Source of the DNA: Escherichia phage vB-Eco-KMB22
Strand: one strand, 5' to 3'
Sequence record: OR539217.1
DNA length: 64,000 nucleotides
Part shown: piece by piece, positions 29,006 to 64,000 of the stretch
How positions within the stretch are numbered: the stretch's first letter is position 1
Layout of the letters: every line of letters begins with the position of its first letter
Translations under genes and position numbers: made by a program
The notes under the pieces: model-generated
What the model saw: only the letters and a program-made list of their open reading frames with translations
Databases searched by the model: none
What the model was told of the DNA's origin: nothing

Positions 29006-29035
29006 TTCAATTTCCTCATTTGTTTTGGTAGAGCT

Positions 29036-34004: not shown

Positions 34005-35183
34005 TTAAAAATATTTTTTAAAACTCATCATAACTTTATCATCAACGTCATTATCAATCTGTGCTACAAGATAAGATGACAGTTCTACTTCTTGTGGCGC
34101 GGATTGAACATTATCAGAATTAAGATACTCACGAATCCAAGGATATGGATGTTTAACCGGAGCATCGGTAATTGGGCATGGAAGACCACACTGTTTCATA
34201 CGAGATACAGTTAAGTAATCAATAAAGCTCCACATGCTATTTGTATTTAATCCAGGAACATCGCCATCTTTAAATAAATGAACTGCCCAATCTTTTTCTT
34301 GGCGGTTAACTTCCATGAAAATATCAACTGCTTCTTGTTCACACTCTTGAGCAATTTTAACCCATTCATCGCCATCAGTGCCAAGTTGAAGTTGACGAAT
34401 AATATATTGGGTGCCTTTAAGGTGAAGCTGCTCATCACGTGCAATGAACTTCATAATCTTGGCATTACCTTCCATGATTTCCATATTCTTATGGAAGTTA
34501 AAGGTACATGCAAAAGATACATAAAAACGAATAGCTTCTAGGGCATTAATAACGTGCAAACAGAGGTAAAGAGATTTCATTAAAGCACGTTTAGCTTCGG
34601 CTTCTTGTTTAATAGCTCGGTTTAAACGAAAGTCAGCATCAGGAGATTCTTTAGCTAGTTCTACAAATTCTTTAGCATTTTCCCATTCACGGGTTTTAAT
34701 CAGAACATCATCATAATAACGTCCAATTGATTCAGCACGTTTCATAATAGCTTCATCCAATACAATTTCATCAAATACCTTCGATGGATCAGTATAAAGA
34801 TTTCGCATGATATGAGTATATGAACGGCTGTGAATAGTTTCACTAAAAGTCCATGTAGCAACCCATGTATCAAGACTTGGGTCTGAAATTAATGACATAA
34901 GTACAGCAGATGGCGCACGACCCTGAATGCTATCCAAAAGTGATTGATACTTCAAGTTATTAGTAAAAATGTTTTGCTGATACTGAGGAAGCTTATTAAA
35001 CTGTGCAGCATCCATCATTAAGTTTACTTCTTCAGGCCGCCAGAAAAATGATAATTGCTTTTCGGTCAAATCTTCAAAAACTTTATGACGTTGAATATCA
35101 TAACGCGCAATACCAAGACCTGAACCAAAAAACATGGGTTCTTTTAAAACATCAACTGGATTTGTATTAAAAACTGTGCTCAT
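34005..35183 (-). CDS. nrdB: ribonucleotide reductase small subunit, uninterrupted
   Basis: 392 aa continuous; no intron. Confidence 0.9.
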   Translation of the reverse strand: MSTVFNTNPVDVLKEPMFFGSGLGIARYDIQRHKVFEDLTEKQLSFFWRPEEVNLMMDAAQFNKLPQYQQNIFTNNLKYQSLLDSIQGRAPSAVLMSLISDPSLDTWVATWTFSETIHSRSYTHIMRNLYTDPSKVFDEIVLDEAIMKRAESIGRYYDDVLIKTREWENAKEFVELAKESPDADFRLNRAIKQEAEAKRALMKSLYLCLHVINALEAIRFYVSFACTFNFHKNMEIMEGNAKIMKFIARDEQLHLKGTQYIIRQLQLGTDGDEWVKIAQECEQEAVDIFMEVNRQEKDWAVHLFKDGDVPGLNTNSMWSFIDYLTVSRMKQCGLPCPITDAPVKHPYPWIREYLNSDNVQSAPQEVELSSYLVAQIDNDVDDKVMMSFKKYF

Positions 35184-41459: not shown

Positions 41460-41475
41460 CAGCAGTATTGCTGAT

Positions 41476-41510
41476 AGTTGTATAGTACCATGGAAGAACA
41501 GGGATGTAAA
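41476..41510 (-). promoter_or_regulatory. early-type promoter (ATTTACA-17-TACTAT)
   Basis: shares leader motif with 58453 and 62150 cassettes. Confidence 0.5.
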
Positions 41511-41520
41511 TAGTTTTGTG

Positions 41521-41566
41521 AAAAAAAAAATTTTTTAAAATAAAAAAGGGGACCCTAGAGGTCCCC
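41521..41566 (-). terminator. hairpin plus long U-run after gene 32
   Basis: 7-bp GC stem followed on - strand by >20 T/A-rich run. Confidence 0.8.
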
Positions 41567-43176: not shown

Positions 43177-43177
43177 A

Positions 43178-43831: not shown

Positions 43832-44166
43832 AGTAGAAAATCTAATGTATTAGTTTTTTCACAACGAACAACAGAAGGACGTAAAAGATTTTCGTCAATA
43901 GCTTCTGACTGAATTTTTTCAATTATACCCGAAGGAATAAATTTAGCAAATTGAGTTTCAGGAATAGAATTTTCTTCCAAGAATGCTGTCGTAGCTTCAA
44001 GATAACTCATTCCAAACTCTTCTACCATTTTTTCAATAATAAATCCATTTTCTTGACGATCAAGAAGCTTTGCTATTTCATCCTTTTCTTTCTTAATTGA
44101 AAGTTCTTTTTCTGAAAGACCGGTCTCATCGACCGGACGAATATCATTTAGAGAAAACTGTGTCAT
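43828..44166 (-). CDS. 33: late transcription co-activator gp33
   Basis: 112 aa from MTQFSLND. Confidence 0.85.
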   Translation of the reverse strand: MTQFSLNDIRPVDETGLSEKELSIKKEKDEIAKLLDRQENGFIIEKMVEEFGMSYLEATTAFLEENSIPETQFAKFIPSGIIEKIQSEAIDENLLRPSVVRCEKTNTLDFLL

Positions 44167-44413
44167 AAAGTTCAACTACCTCTTCAGTTTCAGCTTCAAA
44201 CACATCACGGTTATCTTTATGATACAAAGCTAATAGACGATTAAACATCTTACCATCAACGCCAAGTTCATCTTTGGCACGAATTCGAATATCTTTAATC
44301 AGTTCATTATAACCGGAAATTTTCAGTTTATGATCAGATGCTTCTTTAATAAATTTAGCCAAGTCTTCGCCATGGATAGCTTCATCAAATTCAACCATTT
44401 CTTTTTTAGCCAT
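44144..44413 (-). CDS. dsbA: DsbA dsDNA-binding protein
   Basis: 89 aa, position between rnh and 33. Confidence 0.8.
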   Translation of the reverse strand: MAKKEMVEFDEAIHGEDLAKFIKEASDHKLKISGYNELIKDIRIRAKDELGVDGKMFNRLLALYHKDNRDVFEAETEEVVELYDTVFSK

Positions 44414-44421
44414 TATTCACC

Positions 44422-45339
44422 TCAAAATTCATTAATGCTATTAGTTAATTTAGAAAGACCCGCTTTTACAAAATATGAATAAATTTTGCCACGCGGTGGT
44501 AATTTATATGAATTATAGTAATTCACAATGTTTGAAGCAATATTATCAGGAATATAATCAAAATCAATTAGAACTAAATTTTCTTTATAACGATTATATT
44601 CAGATTCTGTGAGAAGCACCTTAGCTTGCTCACGGTCATTAGCAATAGCTTCAACGATTGAAGTTTTCATTGAAGGAGTTCGTTCACCTTCAACTCTGGT
44701 AAACCAAAAGTCAGATCGTACTTTAACTGAAGCAACGTTATCCTTTTTGTCGCCTTTAAGGATTTTAGTCATGCAATCAATTTCAGCAGAACCGCTTTTA
44801 ATTTTAACCCATTTCTTATGCATCGGTGACCATTGCTTAACATTTGGATATTTGTGAAGCTGTGTAAAGTCACCATCCGATGAAATGATTAAAATCTTGT
44901 GTCCTTCTAAAGAGAACTTTTTAACAAGAACAGCAATGTGGTCATCCGCTTCATACTTATCAATATCCATAACAATGTATGGCATATAAGCTTTCAATTC
45001 ATCTATAACTTTATGGCTGGATTCAAAATAACCTTCCCAGTCCCAAGTAGATTCTTCTCGTGCTTTTCCACGGTTTTTCTTATAATAATAAGCGAAATCA
45101 CGACGCCAGTATCCAGATTTCGCGTTATCAATACACAGTACAATTTTAGTGTATCCAAGCGTTTTTGCTTTTTTGACATTAAACTTAATTGAGTTCAATA
45201 TCAAATGACGAACCATTGATAAATTAATTTTTTCTTTATCTGGGAAGTTTACTAAAGCAGTTGAAAGCGCAATTTGACTAAAGTCAATAAAGCAAATTCC
45301 TTCTTTGTAATCTTCATCCAACATCATTTCTAAATCCAT
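44422..45339 (-). CDS. rnh: RNase H (5'-3' exonuclease, FEN family)
   Basis: 305 aa from internal ATG with GAGG SD. Confidence 0.9.
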   Translation of the reverse strand: MDLEMMLDEDYKEGICFIDFSQIALSTALVNFPDKEKINLSMVRHLILNSIKFNVKKAKTLGYTKIVLCIDNAKSGYWRRDFAYYYKKNRGKAREESTWDWEGYFESSHKVIDELKAYMPYIVMDIDKYEADDHIAVLVKKFSLEGHKILIISSDGDFTQLHKYPNVKQWSPMHKKWVKIKSGSAEIDCMTKILKGDKKDNVASVKVRSDFWFTRVEGERTPSMKTSIVEAIANDREQAKVLLTESEYNRYKENLVLIDFDYIPDNIASNIVNYYNSYKLPPRGKIYSYFVKAGLSKLTNSINEF

Positions 45340-45368
45340 ATGAACCTCGTTCAATTAGTGAGATTTCT

Positions 45369-45398
45369 ATTATATACCATCCAAATCTTAAAGTAAAC
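45369..45398 (-). promoter_or_regulatory. early promoter for rnh (GTTTAC-n-TATATAAT), divergent from gene 34 late promoter
   Basis: motif and spacing. Confidence 0.6.
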
Positions 45399-45401
45399 AA
45401 G

Positions 45402-45409
45402 TATAAATA
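45402..45409 (+). promoter_or_regulatory. late promoter TATAAATA for gene 34
   Basis: exact match. Confidence 0.7.
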
Positions 45410-45443
45410 CTTATTATTGAAAACACAATAGGAGCCCGGGAGA

Positions 45444-48400
45444 ATGGCCGAGATTAAAAGAAAGTTCAGAGCAGAAGACGGTCTGGACGCAGGTGGCGAT
45501 AAAATAATCAACGTAGCTTTAGCTGATCGTACCGTAGGAACTGACGGTGTTAACGTTGATTACTTAATTCAAGAAAACACAGTTCAACAATATGATCCAA
45601 CTCGTGGATATTTAAAAGATTTTGTAATCATTTATGATAACCGCTTTTGGGCTGCTATAAATGATATTCCAAAACCGGCAGGAGCTTTTAATAGCGGGCG
45701 CTGGAGAGCATTACGTACAGACGCAAACTGGATTACGGTTTCATCTGGTTCATATCAATTAAAATCCGGTGAAGCTATTTCGGTTAATACTGCAACTGGA
45801 AATGACATCACGTTTACTTTACCATCTTCTCCAATTGATGGAGATACTATCGTTCTCCAAGATATTGGAGGAAAACCTGGAGTTAACCAAGTTTTAATTG
45901 TAGCTCCAGTGCAAAGTATTGTAAACTTTAGAGGTGAACAGGTACGTTCAGTACTAATGACTCATCCAAAGTCACAGCTAGTTTTAATTTTTAGTAATCG
46001 TCTGTGGCAAATGTATGTAGCTGATTATAGTAGAGAAGCTGTAGTTGTAACACCAGCGAATACTTATCAAGCGCAATCTAATGATTTTATCGTGCGTAGA
46101 TTTACTTCTGCTGCACCAATTAATGTCAAACTTCCAAGATTTGCTAATCATGGCGATATTATTAATTTCGTTGATTTAGATAAACTGAATCCACTTTATC
46201 ATACAATTGTTACTACATACGATGAAACGACTTCAGTACAAGAAGTTGGAACTCATTCCATTGAAGGCCGTACATCGATTGACGGTTTCTTGATGTTTGA
46301 TGATAATGAGAAATTGTGGAGATTGTTTGACGGGGATAGTAAAGCACGTTTACGCATTATAACGACTAATTCTAATATTCGTCCAAACGAAGAAGTTATG
46401 GTATTTGGTGCGAATAACGGAACAACCCAAACAATTGAGCTTCAGCTTCCTACTGATATTTCTGTTGGTGATACTGTTAAAATTTCCATGAATTACATGA
46501 GAAAAGGACAAACAGTTAAAATCAAAGCTGCCGGTGAAGATAAAATTGCTTCTTCAGTTCAATTGCTGCAATTCCCAAAACGCTCAGAATATCCGCCTGA
46601 AGCTGAATGGGTTACAGTCCAAGAATTAGTTTTTAATGGTGAAACTAATTATGTTCCAGTTTTACAGCTCGCTTATATTGAAGATTCTGATGGAAAATAC
46701 TGGGTTGTACAGCAAAATGTTCCAACTGTAGAAAGAGTAGATTCTTTAAATGATTCTACTAGAGCAAGATTAGGCGTAATTGCTTTAGCTACACAAGCTC
46801 AAGCTAATGTCGATTTAGAAAATTCTCCACAAAAAGAATTAGCAATTACTCCAGAAACGTTAGCTAATCGTACTGCTACAGAAACTCGCAGAGGTATTGC
46901 AAGAATAGCAACTACCGCTCAAGTAAATCAGAACACCACATTCTCTTTTGCAGATGACCTTATCATTACTCCTAAAAAGCTGAATGAAAGAACTGCTACA
47001 GAAACTCGTAGAGGTGTTGCTGAAATTGCTACGCAGCAAGAAACTAATACAGGTACTGATGATACTACAATCATCACTCCTAAAAAGCTTCAAGCTCGCC
47101 AAGGTTCTGAATCATTATCTGGTATTGTAACTTTTGTATCTACTGCAGGTGCTACTCCAGCTTCTAGTCGTGAATTAAATGGTACGAATGTTTATAATAA
47201 AAACACTAATAATTTAGTTGTTTCACCTAAAGCTTTGGATCAGTATAAAGCTACTCCAACACAGCAAGGTGCAGTAATTTTAGCAGTTGAAAGTGAAGTA
47301 ATTGCTGGACAAAGTCAGGAAGGATGGGCAAATGCTGTTGTAACGCCAGAAACGTTACATAAAAAGACATCAACTGATGGAAGAATTGGTTTAATTGAAA
47401 TTGCTACACAAAGTGAAGTTAATACAGGAACTGATTATACTCGTGCAGTCACTCCTAAAACTTTAAATGACCGTAGAGCAACTGAAAGTTTAAGTGGTAT
47501 AGCTGAAATTGCTACACAAGTTGAATTCGACGCAGGCGTCGACGATACTCGTATCTCTACACCATTAAAAATTAAAACTAGATTTAATAGTACTGATCGT
47601 ACTTCTGTTGTTGCTCTATCTGGATTAGTTGAATCAGGAACTCTCTGGGACCATTATACCCTTAATATTCTTGAAGCAAATGAGACACAGCGTGGTACAC
47701 TTCGTGTAGCTACACAGGTTGAAGCTGCTGCAGGAACATTAGATAATGTTTTAATAACTCCTAAAAAGCTTTTAGGTACTAAATCTACCGAATCGCAAGA
47801 AGGTGTTATTAAAGTTGCAACTCAGTCTGAAACTGTGACTGGAACATCAGCAAATACTGCTGTATCTCCAAAAAATTTAAAATGGATTGTGCAGAGTGAA
47901 CCTACCTGGGCAGCTACTACTGCGATAAGAGGTTTTGTTAAAACTTCATCTGGTTCAATTACATTCGTTGGTAATGATACAGTCGGTTCTACCCAAGATT
48001 TAGAACTGTATGAGAAAAATAGCTATGCGGTATCACCATATGAATTAAACCGTGTATTAGCAAATTATTTGCCGTTAAAAGCAAAAGCTGTAGATAGTAA
48101 TTTATTGGATGGTCTAGATTCATCTCAGTTCATTCGTAGGGACATTGCGCAGACAGTTAATGGTTCACTAACCTTAACCCAACAAACGAATCTGAGTGCC
48201 CCTCTTGTATCATCTAGTACTGCTGCGTTTGGTGGTTCAGTTTCGGCAAATAGTACATTAACTATTTCTAATACTGGAACGGCAACTCGTCTGATTTTTG
48301 AGAAAGGACCTCAAACTGGAACTAACCCAGCGCAGACGATGACTATCAGAGTTTGGGGAAATCAGTTTGGTGGTGGATCAGATACAACACGTTCTACTGT

Positions 48401-49313
48401 ATTTGAAGTTGGTGATGAAACATCTAATCACTTTTATTCTCAACGTAATAAAGCTGGTAATATTACGTTTAGCATTAATGGTACTGTGATGCCAATAAAT
48501 GTTAACGCTTCCGGTTCATTGAATGCGAATGGCGTAGCAACATTTGGTAGTTCAGTTACAGCCAATGGTGAATTCATTAGCAAGTCTGCAAATGCTTTCA
48601 GAGCAATAAACGGTGATTATGGATTCTTTATCAGGAATGATGGCGGCAGTACATATTTTATGCTTACTGCATCTGGTGATCAGACCGGTGGATTTAATGG
48701 ATTACGTCCATTATCAATTAATAATCAATCCGGTCAAGTCACAATTGGTGAAAGCTTAATCATTGCCAAAGGTGCTACTATAAATTCAGGCGGTTTAACT
48801 GTTAACTCGAGAATTCGTTCTCAGGGTACTAAAACATCTGATTTATATACCCGTGCGCCAACATCTGATACGGTAGGATTCTGGTCAATTGATATTAACG
48901 ATTCAGCCACTTATAACCAATTCCCGGGTTATTTTAAAATGGTTGAAAAAACTAATGAAGTGACTGGGCTTCCATACTTAGAACGTGGAGAAGAAGTTAA
49001 ATCTCCTGGTACACTGACTCAGTTTGGTAATACACTTGATTCACTTTACCAAGATTGGATTACTTATCCAACGACGTCAGACGCGCGTACCACTCGCTGG
49101 ACACGTACATGGCAGAAAACCAAAAACTCTTGGTCAAGTTTTGTTCAGGTATTTGATGGAGGTAACCCTCCTCAACCATCTGATATCGGTGCTTTACCAT
49201 CTGATAATGCCACAATGGGTAATCTTACTATTCGTGATTTCTTACGAATTGGTAATGTTCGCATTATTCCTGACCCAGTGAATAAAACGGTTAAATTTGA
49301 ATGGGTTGAATAA
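45444..49313 (+). CDS. 34: long tail fibre proximal subunit gp34
   Basis: 1289 aa; about ten ~40-aa internal repeats; late promoter 45402-45409. Confidence 0.95.
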   Translation: MAEIKRKFRAEDGLDAGGDKIINVALADRTVGTDGVNVDYLIQENTVQQYDPTRGYLKDFVIIYDNRFWAAINDIPKPAGAFNSGRWRALRTDANWITVSSGSYQLKSGEAISVNTATGNDITFTLPSSPIDGDTIVLQDIGGKPGVNQVLIVAPVQSIVNFRGEQVRSVLMTHPKSQLVLIFSNRLWQMYVADYSREAVVVTPANTYQAQSNDFIVRRFTSAAPINVKLPRFANHGDIINFVDLDKLNPLYHTIVTTYDETTSVQEVGTHSIEGRTSIDGFLMFDDNEKLWRLFDGDSKARLRIITTNSNIRPNEEVMVFGANNGTTQTIELQLPTDISVGDTVKISMNYMRKGQTVKIKAAGEDKIASSVQLLQFPKRSEYPPEAEWVTVQELVFNGETNYVPVLQLAYIEDSDGKYWVVQQNVPTVERVDSLNDSTRARLGVIALATQAQANVDLENSPQKELAITPETLANRTATETRRGIARIATTAQVNQNTTFSFADDLIITPKKLNERTATETRRGVAEIATQQETNTGTDDTTIITPKKLQARQGSESLSGIVTFVSTAGATPASSRELNGTNVYNKNTNNLVVSPKALDQYKATPTQQGAVILAVESEVIAGQSQEGWANAVVTPETLHKKTSTDGRIGLIEIATQSEVNTGTDYTRAVTPKTLNDRRATESLSGIAEIATQVEFDAGVDDTRISTPLKIKTRFNSTDRTSVVALSGLVESGTLWDHYTLNILEANETQRGTLRVATQVEAAAGTLDNVLITPKKLLGTKSTESQEGVIKVATQSETVTGTSANTAVSPKNLKWIVQSEPTWAATTAIRGFVKTSSGSITFVGNDTVGSTQDLELYEKNSYAVSPYELNRVLANYLPLKAKAVDSNLLDGLDSSQFIRRDIAQTVNGSLTLTQQTNLSAPLVSSSTAAFGGSVSANSTLTISNTGTATRLIFEKGPQTGTNPAQTMTIRVWGNQFGGGSDTTRSTVFEVGDETSNHFYSQRNKAGNITFSINGTVMPINVNASGSLNANGVATFGSSVTANGEFISKSANAFRAINGDYGFFIRNDGGSTYFMLTASGDQTGGFNGLRPLSINNQSGQVTIGESLIIAKGATINSGGLTVNSRIRSQGTKTSDLYTRAPTSDTVGFWSIDINDSATYNQFPGYFKMVEKTNEVTGLPYLERGEEVKSPGTLTQFGNTLDSLYQDWITYPTTSDARTTRWTRTWQKTKNSWSSFVQVFDGGNPPQPSDIGALPSDNATMGNLTIRDFLRIGNVRIIPDPVNKTVKFEWVE

Positions 49314-49321
49314 GAGGTATT

Positions 49322-50437
49322 ATGGAAAAATTTATGGCAGAGTTTGGACAAGGATATGTCCAAACGCCATTTTTATCGGAAAGTAATTCAGTAAGATACA
49401 AAATAAGTATAGCGGGTTCTTGCCCGCTTTCTACAGCAGGACCATACGTTAAATTTCAGGATAATCCTGTAGGAAGTCAAACATTTAGCGCAGGTCTTCA
49501 TTTAAGAGTTTTTGACCCTTCCACCGGAGCATTAGTTGATAGTAAGTCATATGCTTTTTCGACTTCAAATGATACTACATCAGCTGCTTTTGTTAGTTTC
49601 ATGAATTCTTTGACGAATAATCGAATTGTCGCTATATTAACTAGTGGAAAGGTTAATTTTCCTCCTGAAGTAGTATCTTGGTTAAGAACCGCCGGAACGT
49701 CTGCTTTTCCATCTGATTCTATATTGTCAAGATTCGACGTATCATATGCTGCTTTTTATACTTCTTCTAAAAGAGCTATTGCATTAGAGCATGTTAAATT
49801 AAGTAATAGAAAAAGCACAGATGATTATCAAACTATTTTAGATGTTGTATTTGACAGTTTAGAAGACGTCGGAGCTACCGGGTTTCCAAGAAGAACGTAT
49901 GAAAGCGTTGAGCAATTCATGTCAGCGGTTGGTGGAACTAATAACGAAATTGCGCGTCTACCAACTTCAGCTACTATAAGTAAATTATCTGATTATAATT
50001 TAATTCCTGGCGATGTTCTTTATCTTAAAGCTCAGTTATATGCTGATGCCGATTTACTTGCTCTTGGAACTACAAATATATCTATCCGTTTTTATAATGC
50101 ATCAAATGGATATATTTCCTCGACACAAGCTGAATTTACCGGACAAGCTGGGTCATGGGAATTAAAGGAAGATTATGTAGTTGTTCCAGAAAACGCTGTA
50201 GGATTTACGATATATGCACAAAGAACTGCTAAAGCTGGCCAAGGTGGCATGAGAAATTTAAGCTTTTCTGAAGTATCAAGAAACGGTGGTATTTCAAAAC
50301 CTGCTGAATTTGGCGTCAACGGTATTCGTGTTAATTATATCTGTGAATCCGCTTCACCTCCGGATATAATGGTACTTCCTACGCAAGCATCATCTAAAAC
50401 TGGTAAAGTGTTTGGGCAAGAATTTAGAGAAGTATAA
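49322..50437 (+). CDS. 35: long tail fibre hinge gp35
   Basis: 371 aa, position. Confidence 0.9.
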   Translation: MEKFMAEFGQGYVQTPFLSESNSVRYKISIAGSCPLSTAGPYVKFQDNPVGSQTFSAGLHLRVFDPSTGALVDSKSYAFSTSNDTTSAAFVSFMNSLTNNRIVAILTSGKVNFPPEVVSWLRTAGTSAFPSDSILSRFDVSYAAFYTSSKRAIALEHVKLSNRKSTDDYQTILDVVFDSLEDVGATGFPRRTYESVEQFMSAVGGTNNEIARLPTSATISKLSDYNLIPGDVLYLKAQLYADADLLALGTTNISIRFYNASNGYISSTQAEFTGQAGSWELKEDYVVVPENAVGFTIYAQRTAKAGQGGMRNLSFSEVSRNGGISKPAEFGVNGIRVNYICESASPPDIMVLPTQASSKTGKVFGQEFREV

Positions 50438-50440
50438 ATT

Positions 50441-50468
50441 GAGGGAGCCTTCGGGTTCCCTTTTTCTT
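50441..50468 (+). terminator. hairpin plus U-run after gene 35
   Basis: gggagcc-ttcg-ggttccc then ttttt. Confidence 0.75.
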
Positions 50469-50476
50469 TATAAATA
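50469..50476 (+). promoter_or_regulatory. late promoter TATAAATA for gene 36
   Basis: exact match. Confidence 0.7.
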
Positions 50477-50499
50477 CTATTAAAATAAAGGGGCATACA

Positions 50500-51165
50500 A
50501 TGGCTGATTTAAAAGTAGGTTCAACAACCGGAGGCTCTGTCATTTGGCATCAAGGAAATTTTCCATTGAATCCAGCCGGTGACGATGTACTCTATAAATC
50601 ATTTAAAATATATTCAGAATATAATAAACCACAAGCTGCTGATAACGATTTCGTTTCTAAAGCTAATGGTGGTACTTATGCATCAAAGGTAACATTTAAC
50701 GGTGGAATTCAAGTTCCGTATGCTGTAAACAACACAAACCCATGCGGTGTTTATCCAGGTAACGGTGATAATGCTACTTTTGCTGTAGCAAATATCGATA
50801 TTGTTTCGTGGAATGGTATTGGTTTTAAATCATCACAAGGTTCAGCAGCTCGAACTGTTGTAATTAATGCACGTAATGGTGATATTAGTACAAAAGGCGT
50901 TGTGTCGGCAGCAGTTCAAGTAAGAAGTGATGCGGCTGCTCCTATAGCAGCGAATGACCTTACTAGAAAGGACTATGTTGATGGAGCAATAAATACTGTT
51001 ACGGCAAATGCAAACTCTAGGGTGCTACGGTCTGGTGACACCATGATAGGTAATTTAACAGCGCCAAACTTTTTCTCGCAGAATCCTGCATCTCAACCTT
51101 CACACGTTCCACGATTTGACCAAATCGTAATTAAGGATTCTGTTCAAGATTTCGGCTATTATTAA
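50500..51165 (+). CDS. 36: long tail fibre distal connector gp36
   Basis: 221 aa; late promoter 50469-50476. Confidence 0.9.
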
Positions 51166-51173
51166 GAGGACTT

Positions 51174-54100
51174 ATGGCTACTTTAAAACAAATACAATTT
51201 AAAAGAAGCAAAACCGCAGGTGCACGTCCTGCTGCTTCAGTATTAGCCGAAGGTGAATTGGCTATAAACTTAAAAGATAGAACAATTTTTACTAAAGATG
51301 ATTCAGGAAATATCATCGATTTAAGCATTTCTACTGGCGGTAATATCAGTGGTAATATCACTCAAACTGGTGATTATACACAGACTGGAAAATTTAATTT
51401 AATTGGTCCGCAAATTGTAGCAAGCGGTGGATATATTGAGTTTAATTATCGTACTACTGGAAGTGGGGCTTGGTCCGGTCAACATACTGCGAAAGCTCCA
51501 ATTTTTGTAGATTTAAGCTCAGCTACTTCCACATCTGAATATAATCCTATAATTAAACAGCGCTTTAAAGATGGAACTTTTTCATTAGGTACTTTAGTTT
51601 CTAAAGGTTCGTTGAAGATTCATTATATCAATGAATCTGGCGATTCGAAATATTGGACGTTTCGACGTGACGGCGGATTTACTGTTGACGGTGGAGGTTT
51701 AGCAGTATCAGGAGGTAGTATAACTACATCTGGAAATATTGCAGCTATTGGAAATATTACTTCGCCTCAGATTAATACTAAAAATATTATTTTAGATACA
51801 AAAGCATTTGGACAATACGATTCGCAATCATTAGTTCAATATGTTTATCCTGGAACAGGCGAAGAAAATGGTATAAACTATCTTCGTAAAGTTCGAGCTA
51901 AATCAGGCGGTACAATTTATCATGAATTAGCTTCTGCGCAAACCGGAAAAAGTGATGAACTTTCTTGGTGGACTGGTAATACAGCCGTTAATAAACAAAT
52001 GGGTCTTCGTAATGATGGGGCTTTAGTATTACGACGCTCACTCGCAATTGGTACAATTACAACAGATGAAAACATTAATAACTACGGCTCCGCTGGAGCA
52101 ATGGGCGAATGTTATATAGTTATCGGTGATGCATCAACAGGCTTATCATACAAAAAAACTGGAGTATATGATTTAGTTGCTAGTGGTCTTTCTTTAGCAT
52201 CTATTACTCCTGATAGTTTCCGTAGTACCCGTAAAGCGATTTTTGGTCGTTCCGAGGACCAAGGTACAACATGGATTATGCCTGGAACCAACGCCGCGTT
52301 TTTATCGGTTCAAACACAAGCTGATGAAAACACTGCTGGAGACGGCCAGACGCATATTGGCTATAACTCAGGCGGAAAAATGAACCACTATTTCCGTGGT
52401 AAAGGCAAAACTAATATTAATACTCAAGAAGGCATGGAAGTTAACCCGGGTATTTTGAAATTGGTAACTGGCTCTAATAATGTAATGTTTTATGCTGATG
52501 GCGGTATTACATCTGTTAAGCAGCTTTCAATATATAATGGCATATATTTAGCAGCTAATAATTCTACTGCTGGGCTAACATTCGCTCCAACTACTACAAT
52601 TGATGGCACTAAGCAAATTTTGTGGGAAGGCGGTACTCGTGCTGGTCAGAATAAAAGCTATGTAACTGTTAAAGCATGGGGTAATTCATTTAACGCATCT
52701 GGCGATCGTAATCGTGAAACGGTTTTTGAAGTAGCTGATGGACAAGGATATTATTTTTATTCACAGCGTGTGGCTCCAAGTGGCTCTGAAACTACTGGGC
52801 CTGTTGTAACCCAGTTCAATGGACAAGTTAATGCTAGAGGAAGTATTATTACTGACGGAAGTTTTAAAGTTAATGGATTAAGCACTTTAGTCGGTAATGT
52901 TACCATGTCTAATGGTTTGTTTGTCCAAGGTGGTTCTTCTATTACTGGACAAGTAAAAATTGGTGGAACTGCTGATGCATTAAGAATTTGGAATGCCGAA
53001 TACGGTGCTATTTTCCGTCGCTCAGAAACAGCATTACATATTATCCCGACTCCTAAAGATGCCGGTGAAAGTGGTGGAATAAGTAATCTCCGCCCACTTA
53101 GTATTAGTCTTAATAATGGTATGGTACAAATGCGCCATTCTGTTACGTTAGGCGATGATGGCGCTGGCGGTAATATGATTACTGTGGACAACGATACCAA
53201 ACTTGTTGTTGTTACTAGTAATAGTCGCATTTCTCCTAATTACCGTATGCAGGTAGGACAAGCAGCTTATATTGATGCTGAATGTACTGACACAGTTCGC
53301 CCGGCTGGTGCAGGGTCTTTTGCTTCACAAAATAATGAAAACGTTCGTGCTCCATTCTATATGAATATTAATCGTACAGATACAAGTACTTACGTTCCTA
53401 TTTTGAAACAACGATATGTCCAAGGAAACAGTTGTTATTCTCTGGGAACTCTAATTAACGGCGGTAACTTCAGAGTTCATTATCATGAAGGCGGCGATGG
53501 CGGTTCGACTGGCGCTATTATAAAGGATTTAGGTTGGGAATTTAACAAAAATGGTGATTTTATATCTCCTAAGCGTGTTTCTGCTGGTGGTTCAGTTTAT
53601 TTAGGTACAGACGGCAATATTACAGGTGGTTCTGGCAATTTTGCTAATTTAAACAGTACAATTGAATCACTTAAAACCGATATTGTATCGAGTTACCCAA
53701 TCGGTGCTCCTATTCCATGGCCAACGGATACTCCTCCTGACGGTTACGCTATTATGGAAGGCCAGACTTTTGATAAGTCTGCATACCCAAAATTGGCTAT
53801 GGCTTACCCATCTGGCGTAATTCCAGATATGCGCGGGCAAACTATTAAAGGTAAACCAAGTGGTCGAGCTGTATTAAGCGCAGAAGCCGATGGTGTTAAG
53901 GCTCATAGCCATAGTGCATCGGCTTCAAGTACTGACTTGGGTACTAAAACTACGTCGAGTTTTGATTATGGTACTAAGACGACAAGTAGCTTTGACTATG
54001 GCACTAAGACTAGCAATACCACAGGTAACCACTCTCATACTGTAAGCGGTACTACGAGTTCTGCTGGTGCACACCAACATGCGCGCTCAGGTCCTCAGAT

Positions 54101-54449
54101 ACAAGCCGGCATACCCAATAACATATTCTATGACGGATATAATAGTGTAGGTGCAAACGCCAACGCTAAATTCACTGGAACCGTGAACGGTGCTACTGCA
54201 GGGTCGAATATAGCCAAAACTTCTTCAGACGGTGCTCATACTCATACTTGGTCTGGTACTACAAGCACTACAGGTAACCATGCTCACACAGTAGGTATTG
54301 GTGCTCATACCCATACTGTAGGTATCGGTGCTCATACCCACACGGTAGCAATTGGCTCGCATGGTCATACTATCACTGTAAATAGTACAGGTAATACAGA
54401 AAACACGGTTAAAAACATTGCTTTTAACTATATCGTTCGTTTAGCATAA
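51174..54449 (+). CDS. 37: long tail fibre distal subunit gp37 (receptor-binding tip)
   Basis: 1091 aa; C-terminal His-x-His repeats and [11 protein letters not shown] terminus. Confidence 0.95.
54291..54371 (+). repeat. three 27-bp tandem units encoding His-x-His nonapeptides in gp37 tip
   Basis: units 1 and 2 differ only at 3 synonymous positions; unit 3 diverged. Confidence 0.85.
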
Positions 54450-54451
54450 GG

Positions 54452-54470
54452 AGAGGGGCTTCGGCCCCTT
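54452..54470 (+). other. intercistronic CUUCGG hairpin between 37 and 38 (no U-run)
   Basis: aggggc-ttcg-gcccct. Confidence 0.5.
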
Positions 54471-54476
54471 CTAAAT

Positions 54477-55028
54477 ATGAAAATATATCATTATTATTTT
54501 GACACTAAAGAATTTTACAAAGAAGAAAATTACAAACCGGTTAAAGGCCTCGGTCTTCCTGCTCATTCAACAATTAAAAAACCTTTAGAACCTAAAGAAG
54601 GATATGCAGTTGTATTTGATGAACGTACTCAGGATTGGATTTATGAAGAAGACCATCGCGGAAAACGAGCATGGACTTTTAATAAAGAAGAAATTTTTAT
54701 AAGTGAAATTGGAAGCCCGGTTGGTATAACTTTTGATGAGCCTGGCGAATTTGATATATGGACTGATGACGGTTGGAAAGAAGACGAAACATATAAGCGA
54801 GTTTTAATTCGTAATAGAAAAATTGAAGAATTATATAAAGAGTTCCAAGTTTTAAATAATATGATTGAAGCTTCTGTCGCCAATAAAAAGGAAAAATTTT
54901 ATTATAAAAACCTTAAGCGGTTCTTTGCTCTTTTAGAAAAGCATGAGCATTTAGGTGGTGAATTCCCTTCATGGCCTGAAAAAGAACGGAAACCTTGGTA
55001 TAAGCGTTTATTCAAGCATTACGTATAA
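54477..55028 (+). CDS. 38: gp38 tail-fibre assembly chaperone (T4-type, not T2-type adhesin)
   Basis: 183 aa, Lys/Glu-rich, no glycine-rich adhesin segments. Confidence 0.85.
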   Translation: MKIYHYYFDTKEFYKEENYKPVKGLGLPAHSTIKKPLEPKEGYAVVFDERTQDWIYEEDHRGKRAWTFNKEEIFISEIGSPVGITFDEPGEFDIWTDDGWKEDETYKRVLIRNRKIEELYKEFQVLNNMIEASVANKKEKFYYKNLKRFFALLEKHEHLGGEFPSWPEKERKPWYKRLFKHYV

Positions 55029-55048
55029 ATATCTTAAAAGGAGGGTCT

Positions 55049-55705
55049 ATGGCAGCACCTAGAATATCATTTTCGCCCTCTGATATTCTGTTTGGTGTTC
55101 TAGATCGCTTGTTCAAAGATAACGCTACTGGGAAGGTTCTTGCTTCCCGGGTAGCTGTCGTAATTCTTTTATTTATGATGGCGATTGTTTGGTATAGGGG
55201 AGATAGTTTCTTTGAGTACTATAAGCAATCAAAGTATGAAACATACAGTGAAATTATTGAAAAGGAAAGAAATGCACGCTTTGAATCTGTCGCCCTGGAA
55301 CAACTCCAGATAGTTCATATATCATCTGAGGCAGACTTTAGTGCGGTGTATTCTTTCCGCCCTAAAAACTTAAACTATTTTGTTGATATTATAGCATACG
55401 AAGGAAGATTACCTTCAACAATAACTGAAAAATCACTTGGAGGATATCCTGTTGATAAAACTATGGATGAATATACAGTTCATTTAAATGGACGTCATTA
55501 TTATTCTGACTCAAAATTTGCTTTTTTACCAACTAAAAAGCCTACTCCCGAAATAAACTACATGTACAGTTGTCCATATTTTAATTTGGATAATATCTAT
55601 GCTGGAACGATAACCATGTACTGGTATAGAAATGATCATATAAGTAATGACCGCCTTGAATCAATATGTGCTCAGGCGGCCAGAATATTAGGAAGGGCTA
55701 AATAA
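55049..55705 (+). CDS. t: holin T
   Basis: 218 aa; single N-terminal TM segment and large periplasmic domain. Confidence 0.9.
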   Translation: MAAPRISFSPSDILFGVLDRLFKDNATGKVLASRVAVVILLFMMAIVWYRGDSFFEYYKQSKYETYSEIIEKERNARFESVALEQLQIVHISSEADFSAVYSFRPKNLNYFVDIIAYEGRLPSTITEKSLGGYPVDKTMDEYTVHLNGRHYYSDSKFAFLPTKKPTPEINYMYSCPYFNLDNIYAGTITMYWYRNDHISNDRLESICAQAARILGRAK

Positions 55706-55978
55706 TTATTTGTTCGTATACATCTCTAGATATCGATATACACCCTCAAAACCCTCGTTGAATTCGTCGATGAGGGTTTTCTTATCTTCTTGAGTTAATT
55801 CAGAAACAATTTTACGGAATGAATTCTGATTTAATTTTCTACCTTCATGCGTTACTCCAATCTCATTCAGAAATGCAATAAAATTAGCACGATTTTCAAC
55901 AATATCTTCTCTGGAAAATTTAATCAAAATAGACGCAACAGTAATAATTTCACGAACTGTATCAATGTTTTTATTCAT
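55706..55978 (-). CDS. asiA: anti-sigma70 factor AsiA
   Basis: 90 aa, matches recalled AsiA. Confidence 0.9.
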   Translation of the reverse strand: MNKNIDTVREIITVASILIKFSREDIVENRANFIAFLNEIGVTHEGRKLNQNSFRKIVSELTQEDKKTLIDEFNEGFEGVYRYLEMYTNK

Positions 55979-55990
55979 TAACTATACCAC

Positions 55991-56143
55991 TCAATTAGTT
56001 GACTTTGTTATAATATCATCAGACGCTTGATTTGTAAACTGGTCTGTGTTATTTTCTTCAAAAATTTTTTCTACGAATTCCTTGAACGACTTACGTTCCT
56101 GAGCTACATTATGCTCGATTACCTTTTCAAGATTATGACTCAT
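55991..56143 (-). CDS. small hypothetical protein
   Basis: 50-codon ORF translated by hand; ATGA coupling with arn stop. Confidence 0.45.
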   Translation of the reverse strand: MSHNLEKVIEHNVAQERKSFKEFVEKIFEENNTDQFTNQASDDIITKSTN

Positions 56144-56418
56144 TCGAAATAATCTTCAATTTCATAATCATGGACATAAATCATTATAGTTTTTAATACA
56201 TCATCAATACTTTTTCCTGGAGCTGGAATTACGTAAAAATACCCTGCTTTTGAGAGGTCTTTATAAGTTCCAATCAAGAAATCATTATTCTCAAGATGTA
56301 GTTCTTCAACTAATTCATTAACAATTGAGTGGTATAAATTTGGTAGAAACTTATATAGCTTTTCTAGAATATCAATTTTGATTGTGTATTGAACCACAGA
56401 CTGAGAATCAATAATCAT
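56140..56418 (-). CDS. arn: Arn anti-restriction (McrBC inhibitor)
   Basis: 92-aa acidic protein, matches recalled T4 Arn. Confidence 0.8.
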   Translation of the reverse strand: MIIDSQSVVQYTIKIDILEKLYKFLPNLYHSIVNELVEELHLENNDFLIGTYKDLSKAGYFYVIPAPGKSIDDVLKTIMIYVHDYEIEDYFE

Positions 56419-56501
56419 AGACCTTCCCCTTATGTTTCTGTTTGCGATTAGATTCTTTAAACGCTTTCTTCTTATCCTTATGAACAGAAGCTTTATTGAA
56501 A

Positions 56502-56720
56502 TTATGTTTTGCGACTAAATTGTTCATAGTGCTGAATTACCTCTCTCAAACATTTGCATGTGAATGAAAACTTTTTAGCTACACCACATTCAAATATATG
56601 TTCTCTTAAATCGCGTGTATCGGTATATCCCATCTCAACAATAAAATGCCGTATTAGATTTTTATCTTTATCATTGAGAGAATTAAAATAATCAGATTTT
56701 GAATTAATTTCCCTGGCCAA
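56502..56720 (-). CDS. hypothetical protein (arn.x)
   Basis: 72-aa ORF. Confidence 0.5.
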   Translation of the reverse strand: MAREINSKSDYFNSLNDKDKNLIRHFIVEMGYTDTRDLREHIFECGVAKKFSFTCKCLREVIQHYEQFSRKT

Positions 56721-57000
56721 ATTGAATCACCTTCAGTTGACGTTTTAATTCTTTTATCATTTCTTCGTTCATCGCAATATAAAGATCGCGTAAAGCAGGT
56801 TTTAGCATTCCATTTACTGGAGAACTAAATGGACATACATAATCTTTTCCTACAAGCTTTTTGGCAAATTCCATATCACAAAATTTAAATGCCGGCTCAT
56901 TCGCATAAATTCCCCAATTAGTTGACATCATTTTATTGGCATATTCCAGTGCCTGGATTTGATTCATAATTCCATCGATTTGAAACTTTTTAATATTCAT
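56704..57000 (-). CDS. hypothetical protein (arn.x)
   Basis: 98-aa ORF. Confidence 0.5.
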   Translation of the reverse strand: MNIKKFQIDGIMNQIQALEYANKMMSTNWGIYANEPAFKFCDMEFAKKLVGKDYVCPFSSPVNGMLKPALRDLYIAMNEEMIKELKRQLKVIQFGQGN

Positions 57001-57461
57001 TAGTAAAGGTCCTCAGAGTAAAGTTCTTTTTCACTACCACCACGTTCAATACGTACTTGTCCAGCGTAAGTTGCAATAATCATTGCTTCTTCACGTGTCC
57101 AATAATTACTGTATTGGTCAATAAACCCTTGGTCATCATCACAAACTTGTTGAGTAACTAATTGAGGTTTAACTACATCTAAAACTTCGGCCATATCTTT
57201 AGAATAATGACGAGCACCTGGAATAATAAGAGTTCGTCCATCTTTTAATTTAAAACGGTTGGCTGCACAGACAATTCGTCGTTGATACTTTTGGTTTTCA
57301 TCCCAGTACGCAGTCTGCCAACAGATTTCAGGAACTTCTTTCAGAATATCTTCTTCGGTACATTTATAACCATGCGCTTTAAATTTTTCAACAAGACTTT
57401 CTGGAGTTTCACGAGATAAAGGAACATTCAGCATTTTTAAACGATTAATAAATGGGTTCAT
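57000..57461 (-). CDS. hypothetical protein (arn.x)
   Basis: 153-aa ORF. Confidence 0.55.
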
Positions 57462-57787
57462 TTAAACCATCCTTTAATACGTTGCCACAAAGTTTTCTGC
57501 TGAGCTCTGTTAACACCAATTGAACGAATAACCGGTTGAGATTCCTGGAATTCTTTATAATCAGCAAGGTAAATTTCGTAAGCTGCATCCGTAAATGAAC
57601 TTATCGCTGCCATAAAATTATTACGAATACCTACTGGAGCATCTTTACTTTCACGAATAATCATGTATTTACCAGTCTTAATCTTTACGATAGTTCCAAG
57701 ATAAGCTCCATGATACCAGATGTCCCAACCCTCTTGTGTAGGTTCTGCACAACGACGAAGTTCATTAACAATTTCTAACTTGTTCAT
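57458..57787 (-). CDS. hypothetical protein (arn.x)
   Basis: 109-aa ORF. Confidence 0.5.
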
Positions 57788-57797
57788 TATTTATTCC

Positions 57798-58433
57798 TCA
57801 CAGTTCAGATGCTACAGTGATTACTGCTTCAATGTTTTCTGCTGAGCGTTTAATGTCAAGATACACATTACCGTTTTTAGCGATTTTACATGACATTCCG
57901 ATATCAGTAAATTTCTGAATATGATGTTCCATCATTTTGTATCCAAAAATTCGCATATTTCCATTGTTGTTAATTTCAAAATTGCGAATTCCATGAGTAC
58001 GTTTTTCTAAAATGGCAAGATAATTACTACGATAAGTTTCAACCTTTTTAAGAACAAATCCATTTTCATCTAGCAGTTTTAACATGAGGTCTTTATCTTC
58101 TTCCATATCAGAAGTAATCTCACGAGCTTTACGAGTTGCTCGTTTTTTCAGAAGTTCTGGAGCATTTTCCTGTGCATATAAAGTTGCTGCATTTGAAATA
58201 ATATCTTGTGCTTCACCCGTGATGATTAATCCATCACCTGATTTCTCTACCAGGCCTTTTTTAATTAATACCCCAATATTACTATTAACTACTGCGTTAC
58301 CTAAATCTGGATGCACCTCACGAACTTCTGCAGCTGTAATGAAATCTTTCTTAGCAATGGTAATTAAAATCGCAGCGGTTTTTTCATTCAGAACATCGTT
58401 AGAAGCTTTGATGATGTAAGTTACTTTAGACAT
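57798..58433 (-). CDS. motA: MotA middle-transcription activator
   Basis: 211 aa, matches recalled MotA; early promoter 58474-58503. Confidence 0.9.
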   Translation of the reverse strand: MSKVTYIIKASNDVLNEKTAAILITIAKKDFITAAEVREVHPDLGNAVVNSNIGVLIKKGLVEKSGDGLIITGEAQDIISNAATLYAQENAPELLKKRATRKAREITSDMEEDKDLMLKLLDENGFVLKKVETYRSNYLAILEKRTHGIRNFEINNNGNMRIFGYKMMEHHIQKFTDIGMSCKIAKNGNVYLDIKRSAENIEAVITVASEL

Positions 58434-58473
58434 TTTCTAATCTCCGTAATTCTGTATCAGTAGTTGATAGTTG

Positions 58474-58503
58474 TATAGTACCACAGTATGCTTTGGTTGT
58501 AAA
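58474..58503 (-). promoter_or_regulatory. early promoter for motA (TTTACA-17-TACTAT)
   Basis: motif; 31-bp leader identical to 62150-62180. Confidence 0.7.
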
Positions 58504-58520
58504 CCGTTTTGTGAAAAAAT

Positions 58521-58556
58521 TTTTGAAATAAAAAAGGGAGAGCCTCGGCTCTCCCT
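58521..58556 (-). terminator. hairpin plus U-run after gene 52 region, before motA promoter
   Basis: gggagagcc-tc-ggctctccc with A-run on + strand. Confidence 0.7.
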
Positions 58557-58560
58557 AAAA

Positions 58561-58765
58561 TTACTGCATGACTGTGATAACTGTCATGATAACACGTTGA
58601 ATGCCGAACGCAAGAAGACCTCCTGCTACGGCTGGAACAACACCTAAACCCGCCAGTAAAATGCTAAAGAAGACCTCCTGCTACGGCTGGAACAACACCT
58701 AAACCCGCCAGTAAAATGCTACCGGATACTAATGCAGCGCTTGTAATACCTATGAATGGACTCAT
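58561..58765 (-). pseudogene. small hydrophobic protein ORF truncated by 55-bp tandem duplication
   Basis: Hand translation: reads MSPFIGITSAALVSGSILLAGLGVVPAVAGGLL then stop at 58664; removing one repeat copy restores a 49-aa ORF ending at 58561. Confidence 0.6.
58612..58721. repeat. perfect 55-bp tandem direct duplication (2 copies)
   Basis: 58612-58666 identical to 58667-58721 base for base. Confidence 0.95.
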
Positions 58766-60090
58766 TTGATTTCCTCTAAATCTTTGGTGTATTCTGTAAC
58801 TACATCAGTAGTTTTCCAATATTCGTTTTCTTCTTTTTTAGCTTTAGCTTCTTCAGCAAGTTTCTTTGCTTCATCAGAAGTCATATGAAAAATATTCATA
58901 CCAACTAGTTTATCAACATAAGAAGAATACATCTCAATTTTAGAAAGTTCTTCGGTCAGTTCTTTACGAGTTTTACCCTGTACAACAATTTCACCTGAAA
59001 TTACTTTCTTAATGAAATGCGCCTTGGCAAAGGCTAAACGAAAAGCTGATTCAGTTTCTTTGATTTTGTTATCAATTCGTTTTTGGACATAAGTTTTACG
59101 AACTTCAACAAAGTCTTTAATTAAATCGACTACGTTATCGTAAACTTGTAGTTTTCCTTTCTCATTAATAACCGTAATATTCTGAGAACGACGCTCAATC
59201 AACCCGAAGTCTTTCATAATTTTTGCATGGCGTTCTTCTTCATTATCGCTCAAAGAATATTCTTTACGGAATTTAACTTTAAAGCCAAAACCATGCTCAC
59301 CACAAGCATCATCCCATGTAATGAAGCCTTTATCTTCAAGTGGGTCTAAGATTTTACTCACATAAGTTTCACGATCATACTTATACGGAATCTCAGTGAT
59401 ATGCATTTGAGTTCGTGAAGTAAACTTATATGTTCCACGAATTTCATATTGCCCATCAATTTCAACGACTTCACCACGAAATTCTGGGAATTCTACCTTC
59501 GGTTTAGTTACTTTCTTTCCTTGAAGAGCTTGCAGTACAGCTTTCTTGACAGAAGAAACACTATGAGGAAGAATGTAAGTTGCATAACCAGTTGCAATAC
59601 CGGAAACGCCATTAAGAAGAACAGTAGGAATAATAGGTAAATAGAAAGCAGGCGGAATGTGTTCTTTATCTTGATGTACCGGAGCATATTCAGTATCTTT
59701 ATATACGTTATAGAAATTTTTACTTACACGAGCAAAAATATAACGACTTGCTGCTGCTTTTTGGACGGTACGAGAACCAAAGTTTCCTTGACCATCTAAC
59801 AGAGGAAAATTATTATTCCAAGTGTTAGCCATCAAAGCACCTGCATCTTGTGCAGAGTTTTCACCATGATGATATCCAAGGTCAGCTACACCACCTGCAA
59901 TAGAAGCAAGTTTGTGAAACTTATCTTTATTTCCTCGTGCCAAATCAAGAGCTCGAGCAATAACAAATCGTTGGACTGGCTTAAATCCGTCAATCATATT
60001 TGGGATAGCACGATTTTCAACCGTGTACATAGCATAAGCCAATGCTTCATTATCAATGATACTTTTTAAATCGCGATTATTCAGTTGCAT
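58762..60090 (-). CDS. 52: DNA topoisomerase II medium subunit gp52
   Basis: 442 aa, position and length. Confidence 0.9.
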   Translation of the reverse strand: MQLNNRDLKSIIDNEALAYAMYTVENRAIPNMIDGFKPVQRFVIARALDLARGNKDKFHKLASIAGGVADLGYHHGENSAQDAGALMANTWNNNFPLLDGQGNFGSRTVQKAAASRYIFARVSKNFYNVYKDTEYAPVHQDKEHIPPAFYLPIIPTVLLNGVSGIATGYATYILPHSVSSVKKAVLQALQGKKVTKPKVEFPEFRGEVVEIDGQYEIRGTYKFTSRTQMHITEIPYKYDRETYVSKILDPLEDKGFITWDDACGEHGFGFKVKFRKEYSLSDNEEERHAKIMKDFGLIERRSQNITVINEKGKLQVYDNVVDLIKDFVEVRKTYVQKRIDNKIKETESAFRLAFAKAHFIKKVISGEIVVQGKTRKELTEELSKIEMYSSYVDKLVGMNIFHMTSDEAKKLAEEAKAKKEENEYWKTTDVVTEYTKDLEEIK

Positions 60091-61869: not shown

Positions 61870-62145
61870 TCATAGCTCAATCTCAGCGATTTTCATTTCA
61901 TTACTATTAATAGCCGCTTTAAGACTATCTGAAAGAATTACATTCCAGTGGTCATTCATATGACCATTAATTAAGCGTGTAATTTCTTCGGGAGTTGAAA
62001 AATAAGGCTGATCAGACTCCCAATGCGATAATCCTAAGCGAGTATAAATCATGCCTTCATCATCGCTAGAATATTCAACTGACACAAACTCATCAGTTAT
62101 TTTATGTTTAGCGTAATAAAATTTAAATTTCATTTTATTCTCCAA
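61870..62145 (-). CDS. hypothetical early protein (ndd.x)
   Basis: 91-aa ORF; early promoter 62166-62200. Confidence 0.55.
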   Translation of the reverse strand: MENKMKFKFYYAKHKITDEFVSVEYSSDDEGMIYTRLGLSHWESDQPYFSTPEEITRLINGHMNDHWNVILSDSLKAAINSNEMKIAEIEL

Positions 62146-62165
62146 ATCCGTATCAGTAGTTGATA

Positions 62166-62200
62166 GTTGTATAGTACCACGGTCCTTGTGGTATGTAAAC
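62166..62200 (-). promoter_or_regulatory. early promoter (GTTTACA-17-TACTAT)
   Basis: motif; leader identical to motA promoter leader. Confidence 0.7.
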
Positions 62201-62217
62201 TGTTTTGTGAAATTTTT

Positions 62218-62775
62218 TTAAATGGAAAGATACCATCCGTTGTAGTTGCTTTTTCTTACAACCTTACGAAGGTCTTCTCTGTCACCGATGAACTTCGGAG
62301 TGTACTGGATGACACCTGGATGAATTTCTTTAGTGTTGAATATAATTATACAGTCAGCGACTTGATGATTTAGAATGGGCCCTAAATTTATTCCAGAACC
62401 ATATGGATACTCTCCGCTGCATCCCGTTGTTACCGAAATCCAACGCGAGTCAGTTTGATGTGTTTTGACTTCTACACGAAGCCCGCAATATTTTGGATGC
62501 GCTAAAACATCCCATGCATACGTGTACGGATCATCGACATTTTCTTGGCCTTTATTGACATATCCGCTTAGCCAATCTGCCACAAAAAACTCTGCGTACA
62601 CAGCGATACGGCATCTTTCGATAACTTCTGCTTTATCCTGGTTCGGGTTTTGTTTTAAAGAGTATCTTGCTGTATCAGCAATTTTGACCTTCATTTCACT
62701 AGTCAAGTCACTGTTCGATAGGGTAAATGTCGGAATCTGAAATAGTCTCTGTAAACCCGGATTCGTTTTCTGCAT
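62218..62775 (-). CDS. denB: endonuclease IV
   Basis: 185 aa, matches recalled DenB. Confidence 0.85.
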   Translation of the reverse strand: MQKTNPGLQRLFQIPTFTLSNSDLTSEMKVKIADTARYSLKQNPNQDKAEVIERCRIAVYAEFFVADWLSGYVNKGQENVDDPYTYAWDVLAHPKYCGLRVEVKTHQTDSRWISVTTGCSGEYPYGSGINLGPILNHQVADCIIIFNTKEIHPGVIQYTPKFIGDREDLRKVVRKSNYNGWYLSI

Positions 62776-63061: not shown

Positions 63062-64000
63062 TTATTTAAATTGTTCAGTAACGTCTTCAACTACTTCGTA
63101 TTGGCAGGTACGCATTTTAGCATCGTTGTAATCAATCGGAATTGATACTACATCACGCGGATGTACTTTAACTTTTACAACTCGGCTAGTTGAACTGCCA
63201 AAGTGACGAATATAAGATTTAGAACACACATGCAGACCACGAGAACAAGTTTGTGTATCATCGTCATTCACACGAGTACGCGGCATTTTAACTACTTTAC
63301 CAGGACTGTTATCAAAGGTGTTTGAGTGACAGTCAAAGTAGTTGTCACGAACTACTTTCCAAGCATAGAAGTAACCATCTTCTGTAATTTCAATATCGTT
63401 TGCTACCAAGAAATCAAAGAGTCGAGATACCGCTTTCTGGCTTGGGTTTTCCAGCAGATTTTCCAAGAACGGAAAATAAAATTCAAAGTTTTCACCTTTT
63501 TCCATCGAATCGAGAATACGATCAACTAAACCAGACCGTAATTCGATATTTTGATAGAACAAGCTTCCGCCTTCAATTCGAACATCGCCGGAAATATATT
63601 TTTCAACAGCGCGACGAACATTAATTTTTTGTGCCGCTTCTTCCAACTTATCTGCTACAAGCAGATTAAGAATTTCCTGGAAGTTTGAATGAGTATTAGG
63701 AGTTGCGTTATAAGTTACACCGTCAACAGTAATTGAAATGAATTTTTTAGATGCATTCCAAATAATGTCAGATTTAGCAACTGGAGCAATAACTGCATCG
63801 CTATTAACTTTAATTGTAATATCACCGCTAATAGTAACTTTAGAGCGTTTAGCTTCTTCAGCATTTTTCAAAACACGACGAATTGTGTCAACCGATACAC
63901 CTTGCCAATCAGCCAATTCCTGTTGGGTGTAATTACCACTTGAATACAGTTTAACAATTTCAGCTTGTTCGTTTTTGGTCAGGCATTTAATATTGTACAT
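63062..64000 (-). CDS. rIIB: rIIB
   Basis: 312 aa; start codon at last base of window. Confidence 0.9.
   Translation of the reverse strand: MYNIKCLTKNEQAEIVKLYSSGNYTQQELADWQGVSVDTIRRVLKNAEEAKRSKVTISGDITIKVNSDAVIAPVAKSDIIWNASKKFISITVDGVTYNATPNTHSNFQEILNLLVADKLEEAAQKINVRRAVEKYISGDVRIEGGSLFYQNIELRSGLVDRILDSMEKGENFEFYFPFLENLLENPSQKAVSRLFDFLVANDIEITEDGYFYAWKVVRDNYFDCHSNTFDNSPGKVVKMPRTRVNDDDTQTCSRGLHVCSKSYIRHFGSSTSRVVKVKVHPRDVVSIPIDYNDAKMRTCQYEVVEDVTEQFK

Follow-up and report, generated by a model that had tools for sequence, protein, structure and literature searches.

The deposited genome record of Escherichia phage vB-Eco-KMB22 (OR539217.1) is probably 55 bases too long and probably wrong in showing the motA.1 gene as truncated. 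The window examined here (the whole stretch of 64,000 nucleotides that was analysed) was found to contain a perfect 55-bp tandem duplication within this small gene, which lies directly downstream of gene 52. It is very likely that this duplication represents an assembler overlap (SPAdes, k = 55) that was left untrimmed and was made internal by the re-opening of the genome, rather than a biological feature of the phage.

The window was identified as belonging to a Tequatrovirus (T4-like), with phage Ozark as its best relative (99.1% identical across the final 19 kb). The features on which the following description relies are listed below, with positions being those of the window.

57798..58433, minus strand: motA, middle-transcription activator, 211 aa (open reading frame and T4 annotation; Pfam MotA_activ/MotCF in relatives)
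58535..58556, minus strand: intrinsic terminator hairpin with T-run, closing the gene 52-motA.1 transcription unit (9-bp stem, 4 nt after the repaired stop)
58561..58765, minus strand: motA.1 (T4p263 homologue) as recorded, a 150 nt gene plus the 55-nt extra copy (T4 annotation and translations)
58612..58666, no strand assigned: copy 1 of the 55-bp unit, identical to copy 2; the gapless Ozark alignment stops at 58666
58664..58765, minus strand: truncated ORF of 33 codons, ending at the junction TAG (ORF and translation)
58667..58721, no strand assigned: copy 2 of the 55-bp unit; the Ozark alignment resumes at 58667 with a step of 55 nt backwards in Ozark
58762..60090, minus strand: gene 52, DNA topoisomerase II medium subunit, 442 aa (ORF; T4 and Ozark annotation; Pfam PF00521)
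63062..64000, minus strand: rIIB, the first base of its ATG being the last base of the window

The two copies of the unit (58612-58666 and 58667-58721) were found to be identical at 55 of 55 positions and directly adjacent to each other with no spacer, just as the original prediction had described them. Analysis with TRF returned a period of 55, 2.0 copies, 100% matches and a score of 220, and this was the sole perfect tandem repeat detected within the 64-kb window; its origin by chance is excluded (approximately 4^-55 per position). Identity at a period of 55 was shown to cover exactly 110 nt, with not one base beyond at either end. Microhomology at the borders of the repeat is consequently 0 nt: the nucleotide preceding copy 1 does not match the final nucleotide of the unit, nor does the one following copy 2 match the initial nucleotide of the unit. 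The marks by which slipped mispairing is recognized, namely a short direct repeat at the border and period identity over more than one unit, were not found at this repeat. The 30-mer spanning the junction between the copies is GCAGGAGGTCTTCTTTAGCATTTTACTGGC, with the one-copy sequence across the locus running from ...CCGGTAGCATTTTACTGG... through ...GGTCTTCTTGCGTTCGGC....

A repeat located elsewhere in the genome was considered as a cause of the duplication and was rejected, the other similar sequences matching positions 58435-58538 only and not the 55-bp unit. The segment 58435-58529, situated upstream of motA and early-promoter-like, possesses copies of 77-82% identity at 62133-62223 and 41472-41550, and the occurrence of these copies in the window is the reason why megablast reported several places per record. 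Imperfect tandem repeats were also observed in the gene of the long tail fibre distal subunit gp37 (51174..54449), at 53933-54012 and 54285-54348; these are in frame, with periods of 30 and 27 and 74-86% matches.

On the minus strand, the ATG of the 33-aa ORF was found to overlap the TGA of gene 52 by 4 nt (ATGA), and this ORF stops at a TAG provided by the opening three bases of the second copy on that strand. As 55 equals 18 x 3 + 1, the reading frame is shifted by one base within the second copy, which produces this stop. Truncation after residue 33 would remove the C-terminal AFGIQRVIMTVITVMQ, and no plausible restart codon for the C-terminal part of MotA.1 was found. Deletion of one copy in silico yielded an ORF of 49 aa (MSPFIGITSAALVSGSILLAGLGVVPAVAGGLLAFGIQRVIMTVITVMQ) with its stop at 58561-58563. 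ORF analysis and translation bore out what had been proposed from the bare sequence, namely a repeat length that is not a multiple of three, a 33-codon ORF coupled to gene 52 through ATGA, a stop at the junction and, with a single copy deleted, a 49-aa peptide ending just before the terminator, the hairpin of which lies 4 nt further on. The additional description of this peptide as having a single transmembrane segment holds in approximation only: the repaired 49-aa product is hydrophobic along its whole length (GRAVY 1.60) and may possess either one or two membrane segments. The gene is GC-rich for T4, at 45% compared to 36% for the window.

The repaired ORF was found to be 100% identical to MotA.1 of T4 (NP_049874.1, T4p263), where the gene of 150 nt that separates 52 from motA is annotated as a ‘hypothetical predicted periplasmic protein’. 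It also matched PHROG 3487, a family of unknown function, across positions 1-49 of 49 (E = 2.2e-31), and the precomputed Pfam label PF26886 (Phage_T4_Y16H) was present on both the 33-aa and the 49-aa products. Searches of the 49-aa peptide against the local Pfam copy, NCBIfam and the PDB gave nothing significant. The gene order 52 - motA.1 - motA is set by the downstream neighbour motA, while 52.1, ac, stp and ndd are situated upstream beyond gene 52. In phage UFV13, the same hairpin as at 58535..58556 is given as the terminator of motA.1. Judged by sequence, the interrupted gene is T4 motA.1, which gives a name to the small hydrophobic gene, frameshifted and translationally coupled to gene 52, whose anatomy had been correctly predicted. 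Some relatives were observed to possess an extra 75-aa ORF between motA.1 and motA (L009, 3975-4444; L028, which is phage 107, 1717-1944), this ORF being missing in the window, T4 and Ozark.

Comparison with related phages showed this gene to be widely conserved in an uninterrupted form. A full-length, ungapped 49-aa MotA.1 was found to be encoded in one piece by 492 phage records, all with at least 80% identity (tblastn), and the 150-nt motA.1 was intact and in single copy in each of the 13 full-length relatives that were fetched. These results answer in the affirmative the question, raised along with the initial description, of whether the 49-aa ORF is intact in other T-even genomes. A look-up with gp37 found no recorded match, while those with gp52 and rIIB returned 20 places, all of them with the 49-aa gene and none belonging to the same phage; the closest among these was the metagenome contig L037, with 99.85% identity over positions 53.2-58.7 kb of the window. 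Phage 107 likewise possesses an intact 150-nt motA.1, its gene content being unlike that of the window. With a pN/pS of 0.15, and 11 of the 16 variable sites situated at third codon positions (nine distinct alleles), motA.1 behaves at the sequence level as a real gene under purifying selection.

Alignment of the locus itself indicated that relatives carry the unit once. The match to 58434-58800 amounted, in 515 related records, to approximately 312 nt compared to the 367 of the query and was in two pieces, as is expected for one copy. The alignments of all 21 relatives that were fetched broke at 58666/58667. When one copy was removed, the locus was 100% identical to that of phages G8, Ozark, teqhad and FriedrichMiescher. 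No match to a 48-mer centred on the junction was found among 50,697 phage records, and the exact junction patterns were not found in IMG/VR, GTDB genomes or JGI metagenomes, with the wild-type pattern, used as a positive control, retrieving phage G8 in IMG/VR. The two-copy junction was likewise not found across approximately 500 Tequatrovirus genomes. The idea that relatives might share the two-copy arrangement, with a different conserved reading frame, is clearly contradicted by these data, all relatives having one copy and an intact ORF.

Six public contigs (L003-L008), each ending 1-2 nt after codon 33, were returned when exact matches to the 33-aa product were sought. These were rejected as support for the duplication, since each is cut off by the end of its contig and has, after codon 33, the wild-type G or GC and not the T of the junction; the six matches arose because the query was exactly 33 residues long, a selection effect. 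It was observed that the six contigs derive from six different samples and several assemblers, with their ends at the border of the duplicated unit.

Alignment of the window to Ozark was gapless from 43177 to 58666, at which point it restarted 55 nt back in the subject. Across the last 20.8 kb, the only other indel was a 1-nt T-run difference at 62213, a position that falls in one of the early-promoter-like copies (62133-62223) described above.

Several further differences from Ozark were observed in other parts of the window. At 34507-34510, approximately 1.09 kb of Ozark (L020, 33904-34998) has no counterpart. This segment splits the ribonucleotide reductase beta subunit gene of Ozark into two CDSs around an 810-nt ORF and resembles a group I intron carrying a homing endonuclease; where the gene of Ozark is split, the window has an uninterrupted ORF of 392 aa (34005..35183). 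Comparison of window positions 37507-37808 with Ozark (L020, 37995-38783) identified an extra plus-strand ORF of 244 aa in Ozark beside nrdA, and at 28488-29011 (Ozark 28411-28413) it is the window that has approximately 520 bases extra, near 28.5-29.0 kb. These insertion and deletion differences look like typical T-even mobile-element mosaicism.

The end of the window bears on how the record was prepared. The Ozark record ends at the identical point, its rIIB CDS covering 166662..167600 of 167600, and the likelihood of a 64-kb slice ending on that exact base by chance is approximately 1 in 167,000. As the window ends on the rIIB ATG in the same manner as Ozark, the record appears to have been rotated to T4 synteny, so that the old contig ends must form an internal join somewhere. 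Judged from coordinates and not from metadata, the record thus appears to have been re-opened to T4 synteny, with the window being its last 64 kb.

T4-type DNA is circularly permuted, and a de Bruijn-graph assembler would close such a permuted genome into a cycle. On being printed as a linear contig, this cycle would have first k bases equal to its last k bases, which would amount to 55 bp for SPAdes with a final k of 55. If the submitter then rotated the contig to a T4-like start and end (the rIIB start codon) without prior trimming of the overlap, positions 58612-58666 (formerly the end of the contig) and 58667-58721 (formerly its start) would have been brought together as a perfect tandem duplication of 55 bp. 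By chance, both ends of the original contig would have lain within motA.1, which appears frameshifted since 55 is not divisible by three, and the phage itself would possess one copy of the unit and an intact 49-aa motA.1. Rotation without trimming is expected to leave a repeat that is perfect, adjacent, of length k, free of microhomology and at an arbitrary place, as was observed.

Descriptions of such overlaps have been published for related phages. The SPAdes 3.12 contig of phage 107 (OQ599309, T4-like) had a 55-bp terminal overlap that was removed by hand before the genome was reopened (PMC10281100), and the same assembler version, overlap length, manual removal and reopening were described for phage 55 of the Tevenvirinae (PMC10353447); the reopening was aimed at synteny with T4 or, for phage 55, with ST0 (PMC10281100, PMC10353447). 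It was also described in 2018 that contigs from circular or permuted genomes carry an identical prefix and suffix of length k (PMC5923482), while a 127-bp repeat of phage LucasX was reported as ‘direct terminal repeats’ (PMC9009655). The length of the present repeat matches the SPAdes overlap documented on T4-like phage contigs, and the assembler used for the present record was presumably the same. Three Tequatrovirus records that had not been rotated (ES26, PE37 and CAM-21) were inspected for leftover end overlaps, with none found in this sample, which is too small to provide a base rate.

The original prediction had placed a fresh loss-of-function lesion first, with an assembly artefact as the other option. 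Of these two, the artefact is favoured by the exact length of 55, the lack of microhomology, the junction being seen nowhere else and the end of the record on rIIB, and the lesion is disfavoured. These features, along with the repeat itself and the intactness of the gene in relatives, were observed directly, whereas the assembler, its k and the omission of trimming are what we infer.

Among the alternatives, the one to survive best is a genuine tandem duplication of 55 bp that arose very recently in the phage stock and truncates MotA.1 to 33 residues, and this is considered improbable. The resulting allele, of spontaneous origin, would be null or hypomorphic for a small, non-essential membrane protein, and either selection or the bottleneck of plaque purification would have fixed it. 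The duplication is present in the deposited sequence, and a genuine one would look the same in a finished sequence. Tandem duplications are also known from T4 genetics (rII duplications), but those that result from slipped mispairing normally form between short direct repeats, and 0 nt of microhomology was found at the borders here. While perfect copies fit a young event, and a neutral lesion could be fixed by a plaque-purification bottleneck, the match to the SPAdes overlap length of 55 would be left unexplained, and the junction was present in no other isolate or metagenome searched. Furthermore, the gene is constrained and was intact in 492 of 492 records. Homology of approximately 50 bp is enough for recombination in T4, so a 55-bp duplication is expected to be unstable in so highly recombinogenic a phage and should segregate to one copy unless selected. 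In the rather unlikely event that the duplication is real, the present isolate would carry a freshly arisen, recombinationally unstable 55-bp duplication switching off the conserved small membrane peptide MotA.1. This would point to a T4 gene of unknown function being selected against, either in nature or in the laboratory host, and possibly to a reversible on/off allele; as a natural knockout of a conserved gene of this kind, it would be modestly informative only.

Another type of join artefact, in which contigs overlapping by 55 bp (or a contig and a reference-guided patch) were concatenated unmerged, or in which polishing or scaffolding left a duplicate, would likewise leave two perfect, adjacent copies that lack microhomology, and neighbouring contigs of a de Bruijn graph also overlap by k, here 55. 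This explanation is considered highly improbable, being less parsimonious than a circular-contig overlap, which is documented for T4-like phages, and no further join scars were found in the rest of the window.

With an untrimmed circular-contig overlap as the preferred explanation, the main value of the observation is as a data-quality flag, with the length of the genome and the gene call of motA.1 in need of correction. A perfect tandem duplicate of length 55, 77, 99 or 127 could serve as a screening signature for phage genomes that have been re-opened.

Compared to motA.1 of T4, the gene described here has the same protein sequence once repaired, the same synteny of 52 - motA.1 - terminator - motA and the same ATGA overlap; it differs in that, in the present record, the additional 55 bp break the ORF after codon 33. 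The spontaneous tandem duplications of T4 (such as those of rII) are likewise T-even phage segments repeated head to tail. These arise by illegitimate recombination between short direct repeats, and whereas the classical duplications use such short border homologies, the present repeat has none and is of a length equal to an assembler parameter. The repeats of PMC5923482 and of LucasX share the proposed mechanism, with the differences that k was 127 and not 55 and that the overlap lay at the ends of the record and not internally. Phages 107 and 55 resemble the present case in having the same overlap length of 55 bp and the same re-opening step, with phage 107 also being a Tequatrovirus; in both of these the overlap was trimmed before re-opening, whereas in the record of vB-Eco-KMB22 it was apparently kept, resulting in an internal tandem duplication.
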